From the NCBI GenBank assembly GCA_963771075.1, contig CAVYSE010000026.1:64001-128000 (forward strand): a DNA stretch of 64,000 nt, in the 5' to 3' direction. Origin of the DNA: a candidate division FCPU426 bacterium. GTDB taxonomy: Bacteria; Oederibacteriota; Muellerivitia; Muellerivitales; Muellerivitaceae. Shown one piece after another: positions 9,066 to 56,986 of this stretch (its first letter is position 1; every line of letters begins with the position of its first letter). A program made the translations under genes and the position numbers. The notes below the pieces were generated by a model. That model ran no database searches. It had not been told where the DNA came from and saw only the letters and a program-made list of their open reading frames with translations.

Positions 9066-9323
9066 TCAGCCGGTCTTCTTCAGTCCCAATTTATGCTCGA
9101 TTTTGCGGACGCGTTCTTCCAGGGTTAAATTTTCCGACATCGAGCGCTTTAAAATCGAGTTCATGAGGGTTTGGTATGGGATTCCTTGTTTTTTCCCCTC
9201 CTCGATAAGCCAATGGTAAACAGTCTCATCCAGCCGGAAGGTTTTCTGAATCTTAGAACCCTTGGAAGCCAAAAGAGGGCCTCTATGAACCTTGGCTTTT
9301 GAAAAATCATATTCTTTTTTCAT
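9066..9323 (-). CDS. BrnA-family antitoxin
   Basis: MKKEYDFSKA...TFRLD..V..W...GIPYQTLMN pattern; overlaps the 3' end of a BrnT-like gene. Confidence 0.85.
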   Translation of the reverse strand: MKKEYDFSKAKVHRGPLLASKGSKIQKTFRLDETVYHWLIEEGKKQGIPYQTLMNSILKRSMSENLTLEERVRKIEHKLGLKKTG

Positions 9324-9579
9324 AGTTTTCCCGTTCCTTTCTTGTGGCTTTCCTGGCCGAGATGATTCGGATGACATCCATTTCCCGGTACGCGTAAACC
9401 ACCACCAACAGGTTTAATTTCTTTGAATACCCAAGCGCGATGAATCTTTGTTCGTGGTGTTCAATATCTTACAACACCAATTGAACGTCGGATTCCAAGA
9501 CGGATTGGGCCTCTTCAAACGAGACCCCATGTTTTATTAGATTGGAAGCGGCTTTCCGGGGATCCCAAATGACGAGCAT
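9307..9579 (-). pseudogene. BrnT-family toxin with in-frame TAA at 9469-9471
   Basis: Manual translation MLVIWDPRKAASNLIKHGVSFEEAQSVLESDVQLVL*DIEHHEQRFIALG...IRIISARKATRKERENYEKRI. Confidence 0.85.
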
Positions 9580-9591
9580 GAATCAAGTATA

Positions 9592-9618
9592 AACTACGTT
9601 GTAGTTACATTGCAATGT
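9592..9618. promoter_or_regulatory. Palindromic operator-like sites upstream of brnTA
   Basis: AACTAC-gtt-GTAGTT and perfect ACATTGCAATGT just upstream of the toxin start. Confidence 0.45.
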
Positions 9619-9627
9619 GTTCTCCCT

Positions 9628-9690
9628 GTCCACGTTGGGTCCCCGCCATGTAGCATGCGCTTGCGCTTAGCTACATGGCCCGTCGTGGAC
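9628..9690. repeat. GTCCAC...GTGGAC palindromic inter-module repeat (long form)
   Basis: gtccacgttgggtcccc-[gccatgtagc...gctacatggc hairpin]-ccgtcgtggac. Confidence 0.8.
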
Positions 9691-9700
9691 GACTTTTTCA

Positions 9701-10012
9701 TCACTCGAAAGCGGAATCATCCAAAAGACGAGACCCATGAATGATCCGAAGAATATAAACCGTTTTTTGGGAGATCCGGAAAATCGTCCTGTAATCCCCA
9801 TACAAGATATGCCGATAGGCCGTCCCTAATACTTCATTTTCCGGAACAGAAGGGCATCTTTCCGGGTAGTGCTCCAAAGTGGTGATTTGTTGTTCTATTC
9901 TAGAGATGAACTTTGCCGCTTCCCGAGAACTGTCCTTGCCAATAAAATCCCAAATTTCCCTCAAATCCCCTTCGGCGGTTCGGGTGATCTTAACCTGGTA
10001 TCGAATGGGCAT
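9701..10012 (-). CDS. RelE/ParE-family toxin
   Basis: YQVKITRTAEGDL.EI..FI...YR.I...YR.IFRI....VYILRIIHG.R pattern. Confidence 0.9.
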   Translation of the reverse strand: MPIRYQVKITRTAEGDLREIWDFIGKDSSREAAKFISRIEQQITTLEHYPERCPSVPENEVLGTAYRHILYGDYRTIFRISQKTVYILRIIHGSRLLDDSAFE

Positions 10013-10274
10013 GCATGAACTCTTTCAAGAAGGCGCGAACGGGACGCACGCGGTGGGCTGTCACGTCTTTCTCGGCGGAAACAAGTTCGCGGGCAAGATT
10101 CACCGCGCTCAAATAGACTTCATAGGATTTTGAGTTCATCAATACGGCGTCAGCTTTTCCATTTACGGTTAACACAACGGGACGACCGGTCCGGTGGATT
10201 TGGTCCAATAGACTGCGGGTGTTTCGCTTCAAATCGGTCACCGACCGGATGTCCTCGGAAAATTTAATTCCCAT
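9990..10274 (-). CDS. Phd/YefM-family antitoxin
   Basis: DIRSVTDLKRN...P.VLTVNGKA.AV pattern; overlaps toxin start; inverted repeat TTAAGCA...TGCTTAA at 10291-10314. Confidence 0.9.
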   Translation of the reverse strand: MGIKFSEDIRSVTDLKRNTRSLLDQIHRTGRPVVLTVNGKADAVLMNSKSYEVYLSAVNLARELVSAEKDVTAHRVRPVRAFLKEFMHAHSIPG

Positions 10275-10352
10275 AGCCGCCCCCCTTAGCTTAAGCATCT
10301 AATGTGGTGCTTAATTTAGCATCATTCAACCAAGGCTTCAACCCCTTAGGTA

Positions 10353-10392: not shown

Positions 10393-10965
10393 TTATTTGG
10401 CCATTTTTTGTTTGAGCTCGTCGACGAATACTTGAGCTTTTTTATTTCCGTGATTGGCGGCCTTCTGAAACCATTCCATCGCTTCTTGCTCGTCCTTTGA
10501 GACTCCAAGACCCTGGTAATATAAAAGACCTATATTTCCTTCCGCATCAGAGTTTCCTTGGATAGCGGCCATTCGAAAATACTTCAACGCTTCTTGGTAA
10601 TCCTGGGTTGTTCCATGTCCAGTTAAATAAAGACCGCCAAGCGAGTTTTCGGCTTCCGGGTTTCCTTGCGCAGCTGATTTTTGATACCACTCGATGGCTT
10701 TTTGATAATCTTGATTAACCCCTTTTCCGCTTTCATACATGAAGCCAATAGCGTTTTCGGCTCTATCGTCCCCTTGTGTGGCGGCTTTTAGAAACCAATT
10801 CATAGCCTGTTGATGGTCTTGAGCGATCCCATTTCCCCCGGCATAAGCCAAGCCAATATTGAACTGGGCTTTACGGTTCCCCTGATTTGCGGCTTTTAAA
10901 TTCCATTGGAAGGCTTTTACATCATCTTCATGAACTCCATGACCCTTACTGTAAAGACCTGCGAA
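10393..10965 (-). pseudogene. Sel1-repeat protein, N-terminus lost at the transposon end
   Basis: Sel1 repeats (A..WF.KAA.QG...A...IG..Y..G.GV..D) continue in frame upstream of 10851 (FAGLYSKGHGVHEDDVKAFQWNLKAANQG) up to the GGGGTCA terminus. Confidence 0.75.
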
Positions 10966-11028
10966 ACAACGGGGTCAAACAACGGGGTCACCTATGAAAA
11001 AGAATGTCCAGGCAAAAGCGTAGTATCA

Positions 11029-11173
11029 CGGCCCCAAGTCCAACCTGAGTCTCAAAGGACTACAAGTCAGTCACCTATTCGCGGTTGTTTCACCGCACGA
11101 TAACGTTGGACCCGGCCGCTCAATCAGGCCAAGGACCTCAACTCTTGCGGGTTGTGTCAGACCCCGTCGGAGC
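11029..11173 (-). ncRNA. Predicted bridge (seek) RNA of the IS1111 element
   Basis: Two stem-enclosed loops carry segments matching the target (gaccccgt, tcaggcc) and the circle junction (gataac, tcacctat). Ends approximate. Confidence 0.75.
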
Positions 11174-12179
11174 TGGCCGGGCAGTCCTCAAAAGCTTCCT
11201 TCTTTCGTAACATATGAAAGATGCTTTTCAGCATAGCCCTTGCTACTGCTATTCGTCCCGCGTTATTCCCATGCTTCTTCTTCACCCTCGTGTATAAGGT
11301 CCCATACCGTCGGGTTTTGCGAATGGCATGAAGCGAGTTCTCAACCAATATCCAGCGAATCCATTTAGAACCCTGTTTGGTGATGTGGCCGTTGTGGCTT
11401 TTTCCCCCTGATGCGTGAACACTGGGGACCAATCCACCATAAGAACATAGATGTTCCGCGTCCGGGAACCGGCGAATATCCCCAATCTCGCTCAAAATTA
11501 ATAAAGCCGAAAAGGCACCCACGCCTGGCATGGTCATCATCAGCTGGGCTTCCGGGCTTTCTGCTGCCATTTTCTTGATCACCTCTTCTGATTTGGCGAT
11601 CTCTTGGCCTAGTTCCCGGATTACTTCCATATATCCGTCCAGTTCCAAACGGTAGCAAGGCCGGGTACCTACCGTGGCAAGTTCGCGGAAGTTCTTTATT
11701 CCGAATCGGTTTTTAGTAACGGGTTCGATTCCCGCCTTGGTCATGACCGAAGTCATCCGGTTTTTGGCTTGTGTTCTCAATTGCACCAGGGAAGCCCGGT
11801 ACCTAAGGATTTCCCGTAAGTCGCGGATCTCTCGGGGTGGCACATAGGCTCGTGGCAGCAGATCCACCCGCAAAAGTTGAGCCAGGATTCCCGAATCAAT
11901 TTTATCCGTCTTGATCTTGGCCGAGGCTATGGCTTTGACCTTTTGGGGGTGGGCCAATACCAGGTTGGGGAATCGATCCTCGATGAGTTCGTAAAAGTGA
12001 TACCAATGACCTGTGGCTTCTACTACGACCTGGCTACTCACGGGTTGCTTCTTGAAATAAGCCTTTAAAGTATCCGCGTCGTTCTTCAGATCGACTTGTT
12101 CCAGCACCTTTCCTTTCTCATTCACTCTCGTGACGTAGGATGTTTTCTGGTGTAGGTCTACTCCGATATACTGTCCCAC
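11157..12179 (-). CDS. IS110-family recombinase/transposase
   Basis: DEDD residues in GVDLH, VVEATG and KTDKID; C-terminal TMPGVG...GLVP....SGG domain. Confidence 0.95.
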   Translation of the reverse strand: MGQYIGVDLHQKTSYVTRVNEKGKVLEQVDLKNDADTLKAYFKKQPVSSQVVVEATGHWYHFYELIEDRFPNLVLAHPQKVKAIASAKIKTDKIDSGILAQLLRVDLLPRAYVPPREIRDLREILRYRASLVQLRTQAKNRMTSVMTKAGIEPVTKNRFGIKNFRELATVGTRPCYRLELDGYMEVIRELGQEIAKSEEVIKKMAAESPEAQLMMTMPGVGAFSALLILSEIGDIRRFPDAEHLCSYGGLVPSVHASGGKSHNGHITKQGSKWIRWILVENSLHAIRKTRRYGTLYTRVKKKHGNNAGRIAVARAMLKSIFHMLRKKEAFEDCPASSDGV

Positions 12180-12421
12180 GGCTGCACCTCCTAAGCGTTT
12201 TGCACCACCTGCAAAGGTGAGTGCCTTTTCGACTCTGGGTTTATCCTAGAGCCTCGTCCCACTTAAGTGGAGACGCTCTACGCTTGGAGCTCTGCAGCCT
12301 TTTTCATGTTATCAGGTCTTAATTTTATATTATCTATCCGCGCTTTGAACCGCGTCTCTCCCTCCATCCGCTTCTTTATTATCGCTATCCGGTTCCCCAC
12401 GGCCGAATATTTTACACCAAA

Positions 12422-13261
12422 TTATTCCGCGATCTCTTTCAGGCCCAGGTGCGCTCTTTTTCGAAGTAGGTACATACCAACGTCCCTCGCCTCGTTGGCC
12501 TTGTGGAACTTAGTCGTGATTTCCTTTTCCTCAACCTTATATGCTTTCGAGACCTTTTGGATAACATCTTCCGCCGTACGTTTCTCGATCCGATGGTGTT
12601 TCATCGGTATTTCCGGGTCTTTCTTATCCAACAACCCCTTTAATTTCTCCTTTAGACCCTCACCCCCGTAATAAACCCCACCCTCCATCTTTTCCCATGG
12701 CGATTCCTTTTTTCGCAACCCTTCCAATACGAACTTCCGATAGGCTCTTTGGGCTTGCTTGGATTGCCTGCCAAATTGCCCCAATACCCAATCCACCTCA
12801 AACCAAGGTTCTTTCTTCTCGATCCCGGCCGTCGCCCGATAGCTGCTCCACTTCCATTTCCGGGGATGTTTCACCAACCGCGCTCTTACCGGGTTCAAGA
12901 CCACATATCGGCACAACTCCAACAAATGGGTTCCCTTTTCCACATGGATCGCCTTATAACGGCCTTGAAAGAGATGCCCTACCCGGTTATTCCGTCGATT
13001 GAATTTCTGGGTATAAACACCATTCAGGTGCCGTATGGCCCGTGACAAGTTGGCTTCCGGCGTCTCCACCAACAAGTGGTAATGATTATCCATCAATACC
13101 CAGGCATGGCACATCACATGATGATCCTCCACGACTTGGGCCAATACCCACAAAAACAATTCCCGGTCCTTATCCGACCGGACAATGTTTTTCCGCTCGT
13201 TCCCCCGCGAGGTAACGTGATAAACAGCGCCTTCATAATGCACTCTTAACGGTCTAGCCAT
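12422..13261 (-). CDS. Y1 HUH transposase (RAYT-like) with C-terminal DnaA_C/TrpR-like HTH, probably truncated by a nonsense codon
   Basis: YHVTSRGN, LMDNHYHLL (HUH), GHLFQGRY, YVVLNPVRA. The HTH continues after the TAA at 12422 (EIAE*FGVKYSAVGNRI...). Confidence 0.88.
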   Translation of the reverse strand: MARPLRVHYEGAVYHVTSRGNERKNIVRSDKDRELFLWVLAQVVEDHHVMCHAWVLMDNHYHLLVETPEANLSRAIRHLNGVYTQKFNRRNNRVGHLFQGRYKAIHVEKGTHLLELCRYVVLNPVRARLVKHPRKWKWSSYRATAGIEKKEPWFEVDWVLGQFGRQSKQAQRAYRKFVLEGLRKKESPWEKMEGGVYYGGEGLKEKLKGLLDKKDPEIPMKHHRIEKRTAEDVIQKVSKAYKVEEKEITTKFHKANEARDVGMYLLRKRAHLGLKEIAE

Positions 13262-13377
13262 TTGCGGATCTTATCACAAAGATAATATAAAATGAAGACC
13301 TGACCCCGTTTCGTGACCCCGTTTCGCAAAATATGGATTCCATCGGCTAGAGAAAGGCATGCCTTTTCTTTAAAAAA

Positions 13378-13704
13378 TTAAACAGTAACCTTCCCACCGT
13401 GTTTAAATTTGAATCCAATCTCTAAATCTCCCCCGCAAGCTGTTGCGATGTTAGAAAGCAACGGTAACGAGGTATCGCGTTGATCTGTGCCACTTTCAAT
13501 TCGAGCAATCGCGCTTTGCGAGGTTTTAATCTTTTTAGCCAGACCCTGTTGACTCAAGCGAGCTCTCAATCGCGCCATTTTAACAATCTGGGCAATTTTA
13601 GATTTGGCTTTATTTTGCTCATAATAAAAACGAACCTCCGGATCTTTAATCAACTCTTTGAAAAAAGAGTCGGCGGATTCGTGGTATTTTTTGTTTGTCT
13701 TCAT
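13378..13704 (-). CDS. HigA-like XRE HTH antitoxin
   Basis: R....LSQ..LA....TSQSAIARIE HTH, directly downstream of a RelE-like toxin. Confidence 0.85.
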   Translation of the reverse strand: MKTNKKYHESADSFFKELIKDPEVRFYYEQNKAKSKIAQIVKMARLRARLSQQGLAKKIKTSQSAIARIESGTDQRDTSLPLLSNIATACGGDLEIGFKFKHGGKVTV

Positions 13705-14033
13705 GGCAAGACCTCTTTCATTCTTTTTTCGGCTAACCAAAGGTCGTTCTTTGGCGTCTTTTGAGTCGTCTTTTTAAAAACGTGTAACCAGATCATAAAA
13801 TTTTTATCAACCAAAACGTAAGCAATCCTGAATCCTCCACTAGGCGCAGAAAACTTTATTTCCCAAAGTTTTCCACTCAAAGATCTAAAGATAACGTCAT
13901 GGCAGTTTAACCCTTTGTCTTTTATCCCTTCATAAACATCTACAAAGCGGGCCTGATTCACTTTGGATAAATCTAAAATATATTCTTTAACGGGTCGGCG
14001 CCCTGATGGGGTTTTGTAATAATCGATTTACAT
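13701..14033 (-). pseudogene. HigB/RelE-like (Gp49-type) toxin with TAA at codon 2
   Basis: ATG TAA ATC GAT TAT... reads M*IDYYKTPSGRRPVKEYI, in frame with LWEIKF...FRIAY...LHVFKKTTQKTP; operator-like IR atatccagttggatat at 14043-14058. Confidence 0.8.
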
Positions 14034-52493: not shown

Positions 52494-52899
52494 AAATGAT
52501 TTATGAACTCAACAGCACCGGGTCAACCCTTCTAAATCAATGGGATGTATCGAATGGAGGAATGCAGGGATGCGAGTTTTTGAGTATTGCCGGTACCAAT
52601 GTTTACTTGTCAGATGGGTCCGGCAATGTGGGAATTTACACAACGGGTGGGGGTTTTCAGGGTGTCGTCGCGATACCAAGTTCGAATGACACGGAAGGGG
52701 TTTGTGGTGACGGTACGAATTGGTTTGTGGCGGATAATACCAACAATCTTTTGATCAAATATGGTATGTCGAATTGCGGAACAACCCCGCAAGCAACATT
52801 TACTCCCAGTTCAACCATCACTTTGACCCCGACCATCACTAATAGCTTCACTCTTTCTCCGACTATTACGCTGACATACACGATTACAAAAACCAACAC

Positions 52900-55185
52900 G
52901 ATAACCCCAACGATTACGCTTACTCCGACTATTACCAATACTTATACGCTAACGCCCACAATTACCCTGACACCAACTATCACCAACACCAACACCCTTA
53001 CGCCGACGATTACGCTTACCCCGACTATTACCAACACCAACACACTGACGCCAACGATTACGCTTACTCCGACTATTACCAATACTTATACGCTAACGCC
53101 CACAATTACCCTGACACCAACTATCACCAACACCAACACGCTTACGCCAACGATTACACTTACACCGACTATCACCAACACCAATACGTTGTCACCCACA
53201 ATTACGCTGACACCGACTATCACCAACACCAACACACTTACGCCAACGATCACGCTAACCCTGACCATCACCAACACCAATACGCTGACGCCCACAATTA
53301 CGCTGACGCCGACCATTACGAACACCAACACGCTGACCCCAACGATCACGCTAACCCCGACTATTACCAACACAAACACACTGACGCCAACGATTACGCT
53401 TACTCCGACTATTACCAATACTTATACGCTAACGCCCACAATTACCCTGACACCAACTATCACCAACACCAACACACTGACACCAACGATTACGCTGACA
53501 CCGACTATTACCAACACCAACACACTTACGCCGACGATTACGCTTACTCCGACTATCACCAATACCAACACGCTTACGCCCACAATTACACTTACTCCGA
53601 CCATTACCAACACCAATACGTTGACACCGACGATTACGCTGACACCGACCATTACGAACACCGACACACTGACGCCAACGATCACGCTTACTCCGACTAT
53701 TACCAATACTTATACGCTAACGCCCACAATTACCCTGACACCAACTATCACCAACACCAACACACTTACGCCGACGATTACGCTTACTCCGACTATTACC
53801 AATACTTATACGCTAACGCCCACAATTACCCTGACACCAACTATCACCAACACCAACACACTGACACCAACGATTACGCTGACACCGACTATTACCAACA
53901 CCAACACACTTACGCCGACGATTACGCTTACTCCGACTATCACCAATACCAACACGCTTACGCCCACAATTACACTTACTCCGACCATTACGAACACAAA
54001 CACACTGACGCCGACGATTACGCTGACACCGACCATTACGAACACCGACACACTGACGCCAACGATCACGCTTACTCCGACTATTACCAATACTTATACG
54101 CTAACGCCCACAATTACCCTGACACCAACTATCACCAACACCAACACACTGACACCGACGATTACGCTTACCCCGACTATCACCAACACCAACACACTTA
54201 CCCCAACGATTACGCTAACCCTGACCATCACCAACACCAATACGCTGACGCCCACAATTACGCTGACGCCGACCATCACCAACACTAATACGTTGACACC
54301 GACGATTACGCTGACACCGACTATTACCAACACCAACACGCTTACGCCCACAATTACACTTACTCCGACCATTACCAACACCAATACGTTGACACCGACG
54401 ATTACGCTGACACCGACCATTACGAACACCGACACACTGACGCCAACGATCACGCTTACTCCGACTATTACCAATACTTATACGCTAACGCCCACAATTA
54501 CACTGACCCCGACTATCACCAACACCAATACGTTGACACCGACGATTACGCTTACTCCGACCATTACCAACACCAATACTTTGACACCGACAATCACGCT
54601 AACCCCGACCATTACGAACACAAACACACTGACGCCGACGATTACGCTGACCCCGACTATTACCAACACTAATACGCTGACGCCAACGATTACGCTGACA
54701 CCGACTGTTACCAACACCGATACACTTACCCCGACGATTACGCTAACCCCGACCATCACCAACACCAATACTTTGACCCCGACAATCACGCTAACCCCGA
54801 CCATCACCAACATTAATACACTGACGCCCACAATTACGCTTACGCCGACTATAACCAATACCAATACGCTAACACCAACGATCACGCTTACGCCGACCAT
54901 TACCAACACCAACACGCTTACCCTAACGATTACGCTTACTCCGACCATTACCAACACCAATACGTTGACACCGACGATTACGCTGACACCGACCATTACG
55001 AACACCGACACACTGACGCCAACGATCACGCTTACTCCGACTATTACCAATACTTATACGCTAACGCCCACAATTACCCTGACACCAACTATCACCAACA
55101 CCAACACACTGACACCAACGATTACGCTGACACCGACTATTACCAACACCAACACACTTACGCCGACGATTACGCTTACTCCGAC
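52900..55185 (+). repeat. 48-bp coding tandem repeat (TPTITLTPTITNTNTL), about 47 copies
   Basis: The Tyr-variant unit recurs at spacings of 144, 336, 288, 96, 288, 384 and 576 bp, all multiples of 48. Confidence 0.92.
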
Positions 55186-56986
55186 GGTGACTGACACTTA
55201 CACCGATACCATTACCTTGACTCCGACGATAACACCAACCCCATCAGCAACAGAAACCTCCACGGAAACCATCACCTTGACTCCGACCATAACTTCTACG
55301 CCTACCGTAACGGATACTTATACGAATACCCAAACCTTGACGCCGACGATTACCCTTACCTCAACCATTACCGATACTTTCACAAATACCCTCACCCCGA
55401 CCCCGACGGTTTCCCTTTCTCCGACTGCGACGGACACGGACACCTTCACGGTTACCCTAACCCCGACCCTAACCCAAACAGAGACCATCACCGAAACTTA
55501 CACTGATACCATCACGCTGACGCCCACGGAAACCGACACGTATACCAAAACCATTACCCTAACCCCCACTATCACACTTACACCAACCATCACCGAAACG
55601 CCGGTCCTTTCCTTCACGATCACACTGACGCCTACCGTTACCGCCACACTAACCATAACGGATACGATAACCTTAACCTCCACTATCACGGATACACCAA
55701 CCTTCACCGAAACTCCCACGGGCACCATTACCTTGACCCCGACCGTTACCCTGACCCCCACGGTCACCGATACCTATACGAATACCGTCACGCTCACACC
55801 CACAATTACGCTTACATCGACTATCACCAACACCTATACCAATACGGTTACCTTGACGCCAACGATCACCCTGACACCCACGGTCACCGACACCTATACG
55901 AATACCATCACGTTCACACCCACCCTTACCCTAACGCCGACCATTACCGACACATTTACCAATACGGTTTCCTTAACGCCAACGATCACCCCGACCATTA
56001 CTCTCACTGGGACCAATACGGCGACCCCTTCATCCACCTTTACCGCCACGCCCATCCCCAGCGGAACCTCTACCGTCACTGAAACGTCGTCCGCGACCCA
56101 AACCGCCACTTCCAGCGGTACTGGAACATTCACCACCACTTCGACCGGCACGGGCACTCCCACGACGACAGTCACGACCACACCCGCGATAACCCTTAGC
56201 TTCACTCTGTCGCCCACCGCTACGGGTTCCGGAACCGTTACCCCCACCCAAACCTGGTCGGCCACACCGATCCAAACCGATACGCCGACCCTGACCGCCA
56301 CGCCGGCTTGCGGACAGCAGCTCGTGAACATCTATGACGACCGGGGGGAAAGGGTGGCTTGGATGTGCGGGTCCGGCATTTTCCCCGAAGGCGTCAGCTT
56401 TTCCATGTCGCTCTCCGCATTCGTGCCCAACGCCTCCGGGACGGGCGGGGAAATCACGATCTACTTGAACGGGCGCGTCATCGCCACCTGGAACGGCGTG
56501 AGCACGGGGGGAACCCTGGTGCCGAACGGGTTCTATCATTTCGCGGTCACTGAAACCCTGCCTGACGGCGAGGTGGTGCGAATGATTCACGACGCATATA
56601 TCGAAACCGCTCCCGGCGGCACGGTGGATTTGGTGGTCTGGCCCAATATCGCCCGGCCCGGCGACACCATCCAGATGTTCGCCTCGTTCGCCGGCGTGCC
56701 CGCGGACTCCCAAAGCAGGATCAAGCTTTACGCCATCAGCGGGGAACTATTGCGTACCCTGTGGGTGTCCGCCGGAACCTCCTCCTGGGATTTGAAAAAC
56801 AACAACGGTCAAATCGTGGTTTCAGGCCTTTATTTCGCGGTCCTGGACGGGGTGGACCCGGTGAGTCGTCAAAAACTCTCGAAGATCAAAAAAATATTGG
56901 TTCTTTATTGAATCGGGGATCCGTCTAAAAAAATTGGTCCGTTAAGAAATTGGGTATAATTCGAAAATTCGGTTAACTTCAACGAG

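Follow-up and report, generated by a model that had tools for sequence, protein, structure and literature searches.

The closest described counterparts of the element reported here are IS621 and the IS1111 group of the IS110 family. In the cited parts of the IS621 literature (PMC11208160, PMC11208158, PMC13626964), IS621 combines a recombinase with DEDD and Ser domains, a two-loop RNA located in the left end, handshake guides, a CT dinucleotide core and a junction promoter; it carries no long subterminal inverted repeat (sTIR) and targets REPs, which are repeats associated with Y1 enzymes. For IS1111-group members such as IS4321/IS5075, ISEc11 and ISPa11, the cited sections of PMC11187229 describe a 7/3-bp sTIR extension rule, a downstream non-coding region, a protein of ~340 aa with a GLxPxxxxSG motif, and guides in which the complement of the top strand comes before the match to the bottom strand. 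Insertion into the ends of other elements has precedent in IS4321, which targets Tn21-family terminal repeats (by the title of a reference cited in the IS1111 literature), and in IS621 and ISPa11, which both use REPs. TIRYT elements or TIRtrons (RAYT group 1, TnpA_Y1 subclass 2.1.2), a little-studied family, combine a Y1 domain and a DnaA_C-like HTH with GGGGWSAS terminal repeats (10.1101/279083, PMC3733652, PMC5581495). IS110 has no occurrence in the part of PMC3733652 cited here, and insertions of IS110 elements in TIRYT repeats were not found described there or in the cited parts of 10.1101/279083 and PMC5581495; our literature search, which covered papers outside subscription, found no report of IS110 elements aimed at TIRYT repeats. 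Supplements of PMC11208160 list IS621-related elements of which a few target sequences contain CCTGACCCC (5 occurrences, file 5), so GGGGTCAG-type targets are already in the raw data; these elements are IS621-like with a left-end RNA, and a TIRYT label for their targets was not found in the parts cited. Furthermore, 10.64898/2026.10.21.760802 clusters 181,180 IS110-adjacent sequences, and its supplements may already contain the RNA family described below. The bridge/seekRNA mechanism is already known, and TIRYT ends are apparently an unreported target class.

Here, we analysed a window, i.e., the whole stretch of 64,000 nucleotides from the genome of a candidate division FCPU426 bacterium (G000). 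It contains what is very probably an active IS110-family bridge recombinase element, whose predicted downstream RNA likely directs its insertion, through base-pairing, into terminal inverted repeats of Y1 elements of the TIRYT type (RAYT group 1) (Table 1). The element resembles IS621 in its DEDD and Ser domains, two-loop RNA (predicted here), dinucleotide core, handshake guides and junction promoter (the last two likewise predicted), but has its RNA downstream and overlapping the stop codon, a CA/TG core and a 9-bp sTIR, and the two recombinases share weak similarity (E 1.8e-9, 40 bits). It resembles the IS1111 group in its 7/3-bp sTIR extensions, downstream non-coding region, guide order, protein length and GLxPxxxxSG motif; its 9-bp sTIR compares with a usual 11-13 bp (range 7-17 in the cited papers), and it differs from that group in protein identity (24-25% to IS4321 and ISShdy1) and in its target, TIRYT repeats. 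The locus adds 1) a readable predicted bridge RNA of the downstream type, with a CA core and with four guides and a handshake backed by natural covariation, 2) TIRYT ends as a target class, and 3) signs of mobile, parasitised TIRYT elements in this genome.

Table 1 Features of the element and its TIRYT host in the window (positions 1-64,000), and TIRYT 3'-end copies on other contigs of G000.
Feature	Position	Strand	Basis or remark
IS110-family element	10991-12314	(-)	1,324 bp, one CA/TG core copy (12313-12314) counted in; 7 full copies 100% identical in G000
Recombinase/transposase, 340 aa	11157-12179	(-)	PF01548 + PF02371; RuvC-like D8, E54, D92, D95; Tnp-domain S257
Shine-Dalgarno-like sequence of recombinase gene	12185-12192	(-)	sequence
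Left sTIR, 9 bp	12299-12307	(-)	7 bp in from left end
Right sTIR, 9 bp	10994-11002	(-)	3 bp in from right end
-35 hexamer, predicted circle-junction promoter	11005-11010	(-)	computed junction
-10 hexamer, predicted circle-junction promoter	12306-12311	(-)	overlaps donor arm read by left donor guide
Predicted target-binding loop (outer stem, two guides, inner hairpin)	11112-11180	(-)	overlaps last 8 codons
Left target guide, 7 nt + first core base	11160-11167	(-)	covariation; last codons D-G-V
Right target guide with core (11132-11125), then predicted handshake AU (11124-11123)	11123-11132	(-)	AU matches donor
Left donor guide	11099-11104	(-)	covariation
Inner hairpin, predicted donor-binding loop	11081-11096	(-)	5 pairs in the consensus, 4 showing compensatory changes
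Right donor guide with core (11078-11072), then predicted handshake AC (11071-11070)	11070-11078	(-)	AC matches target
Third conserved hairpin, predicted RNA	11048-11061	(-)	family consensus fold
TIRYT / RAYT group 1 (subclass 2.1.2) Y1 transposase, DnaA_C-like HTH, 279 aa; host element	12422-13261	(-)	PF01797 + PF08299; NF047646
Intact upstream terminal inverted repeat of TIRYT element	13280-13307	(-)	repeat comparison
Left target arm + core: outer end of interrupted TIRYT repeat	10982-10990	(+)	flank comparison
Right target arm: inner part of interrupted TIRYT repeat	12315-12335	(+)	24-bp arm 96% complementary to 13280-13303
TIRYT 3'-end copies, G000	C28:307793, 307954; C3:99945; C7:204472; C18:82973-97689; C6:2550-2826		

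The boundaries of the element are fixed by its seven full-length copies in G000, which are 100% identical across 1,324 bp and carry seven different flanks. The flanks contain no target duplication, and all seven copies lie in the same orientation at GG[AG]GT-CA-GG[CT], as in an oriented insertion round a short core. Left arms read ACGGGGT, TCGGGGT, AAGGGGT, TAGGGGT, ATGGAGT and, twice, TTGGGGT, each followed by CA, and right arms after CA read GGTCTT (three copies), GGCCAA (two), GGCCTG and GGCTAC. The first-pass annotation had expected other copies in ggggtcaggtc; this holds for 3/7, and the remaining 4/7 sit in GG[AG]GTCAGGC, which is closer to the guide. Other G000 loci comprise a chimeric partial copy on C18, an end fragment of 136 bp on C28, a remnant of 34 bp on C6 and a relic of 58 bp on C1. 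The element is compact and recently active, and should make an easy subject for plasmid assays.

Its sTIR is perfect over 9 bp (7-13 bp in 24/25 elements checked), and the non-coding ends measure 166 bp on the right vs 135 bp on the left. Joining the ends in silico yields TGGACA-N17-TAACAT, the sigma70-like promoter that had been proposed for the circle; at the computed junction, a -35 of the form T[TG]GAC[AT] occurs in 25/25 elements, with a spacing of exactly 17 nt in 22/25. A promoter scan of the linear sequence gave one site vs 1.4 expected, with zero within the element. Because this junction is conserved and IS621 and ISEc11 offer precedent, we suggest that rare excision would join the ends into a circle and create a promoter reading first the gene and then the RNA. 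No circle joint was listed for the contigs of four DNA runs, each marked as a potential source of this DNA; a single RNA run, which contains 0.06 of the sequence words, is not counted as evidence.

The recombinase scores 238 bits against NF033542 ('IS110 family RNA-guided transposase'; cut-off 140), and IS110 family membership is further indicated by PF01548 and PF02371 with the DEDD residues and catalytic Ser all present. D8, E54, D92, D95 and S257 are invariant in 40/40 aligned proteins (the query and 39 from among 120 listed hits) and align with the catalytic residues of IS621, whose roles are given in the cited part of PMC11208158. By the features testable here, the locus is an IS110-family bridge recombinase element with a predicted RNA. 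Identity to the IS1111-group proteins IS4321 and ISShdy1 is lower than to ISSso6 (29%), and in a midpoint-rooted protein tree with long branches and four named references, drawn up apart from ISAcp5/ISHvo10-type exceptions, the recombinase falls in its own 19-row clade on a long 100/100 branch away from IS4321 and ISShdy1. We keep the element out of the core IS1111 group on account of this identity and branch, despite its IS1111-like layout; sTIR-bearing exceptions on deep branches are reported in the cited part of PMC11187229. The original label 'IS1111-type' thus describes the architecture and fails for the protein, which, judged by its sequence, belongs to a new clade that is IS1111-like in architecture and separate in protein phylogeny. 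An unrelated second transposase of the IS110 family (27% identity) is also present in G000 as two copies (C9:2073-3068 and C5:85818-86813).

Downstream of the gene, a two-loop guide RNA had been read from the sequence on the minus strand, and its named motifs are all present: ACGGGGUC (11167-11160), GGCCUGA (11130-11124), GUUAUC (11104-11099), the hairpin at 11096-11081 and AUAGGUGA (11078-11071). As had been noticed, the left target guide overlaps the last transposase codons: the ORF 12179-11157 ends D-G-V-stop, and these codons encode the guide. The residue before G-V in 12 close homologues is E (5), D (3), A (2) or K (1), with one E-R-V. The right target guide proved longer than GGCCUGA, being UUGGCCUG at 11132-11125, and reads TCAGGCCAA. 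The gctc/gagc closure of the target loop is part of a 10-bp stem between 11180-11170 and 11121-11112, the columns of which show compensatory changes in up to 12/26 sequences, while the gtccaac/gttggac closure proposed for the second loop is seen only in folds of the window RNA itself. In the family consensus, that loop is closed by GUC paired with the GAC directly after the donor guide, and its closing helix is uncertain. RNAalifold on 26 sequences returned 16 pairs, 11 of them with compensatory changes, comprising the target-loop stem, a short donor-loop stem, the donor hairpin and the third hairpin. By itself, the window RNA folds modestly to weakly (z -2.14), with guides pairing with each other in the MFE structure, and Rfam yielded no real match, only a 15-nt tmRNA fragment (13.6 bits vs a gathering score of 47). 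For antisense pairing of the left end with the third hairpin, only 6/25 elements had p<0.05, the window's element not being among them. In L015, L109, L102, L112, L114 and L002, the 5' untranslated left end carries a GTCTC-N-GGAC motif that is antisense to the third hairpin and may be regulatory.

Guide/target covariation across homologues was the check proposed for this RNA. A single-protein scan of genome contigs returned zero relatives; alignment-based scans succeeded (160 loci), and a further search supplied 12. For the analysis we kept 35 insertion loci with >=50% identity, both ends and a parsable RNA; loci with a missing end or RNA (L006, L012, L013, L014, L023, L098, L113, L115, L117, L124), duplicates (L022, L026, L104) and every locus below 50% identity were excluded. 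Guides were delimited by scaffold anchors, independent of target match, and cognate matches were compared with permuted ones over the 23 distinct guide pairs. Cognate matches exceeded permuted ones for the left target guide (122/161 vs 99.8, p=0.00005), right target guide (108/161 vs 62.3, p=0.00005), left donor guide (87/115 vs 60.1, p=0.00005) and right donor guide (114/115 vs 108.3, p=0.002). The donor-loop handshake follows the target in the same way (43/46 vs 34.0, p=0.00005), with AC, UC and GC shifting with the target, whereas the target-loop handshake (42/46 against the donor) is uninformative because it is invariant. When each hand-grouped lineage was represented by a single element (n=16), p values for the four guides and the donor-loop handshake ranged from 0.00005 to 0.009. 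All these p values are optimistic because kin are not fully independent. At the level of sequence comparison, changes in the four guides and in the donor-loop handshake accompany those in target and donor DNA beyond chance, which supports the initial reading of a two-loop, RNA-guided IS110-family recombinase. The TCA core of that reading has to be revised. The base preceding CA is T in 23/23 donors and T, A, C or G in 15, 4, 3 and 1 targets; since it is constant only in donors, the core is CA, and the T before it is a handshake position.

In the bridge versus seekRNA question, least is settled about the donor loops of downstream-type elements. A seekRNA model, in which a short processed target-loop RNA suffices, the protein reads the ends via the subterminal repeats and the donor loop is dispensable, would suit the 70-100-nt seekRNAs reported for IS1111 members (cited part of PMC11187229), the ~70-nt target loop here, which folds on its own, and the imperfect left-donor matches of many relatives. 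We nevertheless regard it as improbable, given that the left donor guide covaries with the ends, that in L020 and L114 the right donor guide and the end change jointly, and that the donor-loop handshake follows the target. In the bridge model that we prefer, base-pairing would link the donor loop to the junction GTTAT-CA-CCTAT and the target loop to NNGGGGT-CA-GGCCAA, a pairing for which the covariation speaks. By analogy with IS621, the DEDD and Ser257 sites would then cut and exchange strands around the CA core with no target duplication, and, since each handshake dinucleotide fully matches only the opposite DNA, insertion would be favoured over excision.

The element splits the downstream repeat of a neighbouring Y1 gene, near-identical copies of which lie elsewhere in G000. 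Based on its Y1 transposase with a DnaA_C-like tail, we assign this neighbour to subclass 2.1.2, i.e., RAYT group 1 or TIRYT; the host element has the Y1 HUH domain, the C-terminal HTH and the GGGGWSAS terminal inverted repeats of that group. Targeting of GGGGTCAG-type Y1 element ends, as first proposed, is supported by homologue covariation and genome counts, and the target is of TIRYT type. The narrower idea that the guide is tuned to the neighbouring Y1 element was rejected: G000 holds several TIRYT-type families, and the optimum predicted from the guide, GGGGT-CA-GGCCAA, is identical to a sister family's terminal repeat (GGGGTCAGGCCAAC, 0 mismatches), whereas the neighbour's repeat has 3 mismatches. 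In the rebuilt genome, perfect guide sites number two, namely the sister-family repeat (C1, empty) and an occupied site (C21) that resembles a repeat interrupted by a short palindromic insert. When the 16 nt beyond the guide were scored against 68 repeat arms from other genomes, 19/28 sites within one mismatch of the optimum were TIR-like, as were 5/7 used sites vs 69/1,202 candidates (p=1e-5). The C19 site, which is paired with the other repeat of its own Y1 gene, is a sixth TIRYT-type insertion, so that 6/7 G000 insertions lie within TIRYT-type repeats; a further element flank, from one of the four DNA runs (X1), is a TIRYT-type repeat as well. Among intergenic seed sites only (rough ORF mask), 4/5 used sites vs 14/20 were TIR-like (p=0.52). 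Survival bias therefore contributes; guide match together with survival in intergenic DNA accounts for the TIR bias, with no need for an additional factor that recognises TIRs. With a dominant GGGGTCAGG seed and a distal right arm that tolerates up to 3 mismatches, one guide reaches several TIRYT families, as the seven sites show.

Targeting by protein or DNA structure, e.g., recruitment by the TIRYT protein, with the RNA matches as by-products, might be read from the distribution of copies: three of the seven use a 3-mismatch repeat, in a family with several near-identical Y1 genes, and the perfect C1 repeat and 25 one-mismatch sites are empty. The strong guide/target covariation and the insertions away from Y1 genes (only 5/50 loci had one within ~1.5 kb) make such targeting very improbable, and RNA guidance stays our preferred reading.

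Relatives at 50-94% identity carry guides retuned to whichever repeat variants their own genome contains, as shown for three genomes. In a natural swap, the guide of the G074 relative (51% identity) reads TCACATCTT, and its four sites show GGGGTCA followed by CATCTTG (twice), CCTCTTG and AGTCTTG. Free exact matches to the genome's own guide-predicted motif were all TIRYT repeat arms in G074 (3/3, 13-mer), G102 (3/3, 12-mer) and G000 (1/1, 12-mer), or 7/7 when pooled, for motifs picked after the repeats were known and with the G103 and G104 guides outside the comparison. No match to the G102 or the G000 motif occurred in the other four genomes searched, nor any to the G074 motif in G000. Across 28 homologue sites, 15 had GGGT-type guides; with guide-paired bases included, 8/15 match a library repeat at >=12/16 nt (null 5/5,000) and 12/15 at >=10/16 nt (null 4.3%). 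The 7 GGGGACA-type and 4 GGAGCCA-type sites and L105 could not be linked to Y1 genes. Nitrospira-type relatives target GGGGACATTCT, a dispersed repeat (in 5 genomes, 18 hits vs 6 for the control) with two short inverted pairs, and no Y1 gene was recognisable by eye among ORFs within 500 nt of it. Distant relatives (40-46%) keep the RNA scaffold; L119, L125, L127 and L140 again target GGGGTCA, and others target different sequences. The same scaffold occurs in L025, L134, L121 and L105 with guides and sites that are not TIRYT-like; the L025 site may resemble an IS5/IS1182-type end.

These comparisons bear on whether the family is specialised. It is conceivable, though rather unlikely, that the element is RNA-guided but inserts at any guide match, and that insertions in TIRYT repeats survive because these are the commonest harmless intergenic matches. 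Consistent with that, residual enrichment among intergenic seed sites is nil (p=0.52), and L105, L025, L121 and L134 carry other guides and target other sequences. In run X2, one of the four DNA runs, the element occupies a non-repeat site that is empty in G000, where it lies inside a 1,342-codon ORF. On the other side, guides equal their own genome's TIRYT repeats in three genomes with three different right-arm sequences, and the best-matching G000 sites are mostly TIR-like (19/28); survival bias works on sites, and by itself leaves the guide sequence unexplained. We lean, with some caution, towards a widespread, unnamed clade of compact bridge recombinases with IS1111-like ends and RNA position and a protein outside the core IS1111 group, which would parasitise TIRYT terminal repeats and whose target loop would have been repeatedly rewritten to follow each host genome's repeat variants, in the window's sub-lineage via the protein's last codons. 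If true, one mobile element's guides would be tracking their target in another, in a way readable from sequence, and the clade would form a natural library of reprogrammed bridge RNAs with a CA core.

Several minor observations concern other loci. On C28, a 136-bp right-end copy (109627-109762) stands ahead of the full copy and ends right at the CA core in the DNA encoding the right target guide, which mimics an element junction; contigs of runs X2, X6 and X11 cross this duplication unbroken, and it may represent a later-collapsed self-insertion or an assembly artefact. Two partial element copies lie head to head at C18:281542-283122, one arm with many indels, probably as a long-read fold-back artefact. 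In the window, the TIRYT surroundings (9066-10298 and 13378-13961) hold toxin-antitoxin-type genes (BrnA-like, Phd-ParE, Gp49-HTH) and a Sel1-repeat gene, and a 1,472-aa ORF at 52496-56911 (+) contains ~49 repeats of a Thr/Pro-rich unit of 16 residues (48 bp in tandem). RAYTs have been described as single-copy for the most part; in G000, 17/20 Y1_Tnp matches are RAYT-like, in several families and with some near-identical copies at separate places, which is unusual for RAYTs. Tandem duplications end at the GGGGTCA of TIRYT repeats (window 10965-10990 and 13301-13326; C19:80275; C11:544986; L006, L112, L208, L238 and L240), with lengths of 13-20 bp in 4/40 G000 motif sites; they are present with or without an IS110 element and are likely a footprint of TIRYT activity. 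Finally, solo or tandem TIRYT 3'-end copies of 90-310 bp have a fixed outer edge and a variable inner length, resembling one-ended mobilisation, and on C6 the 34-bp IS110-end remnant abuts such a TIRYT 3'-end repeat.
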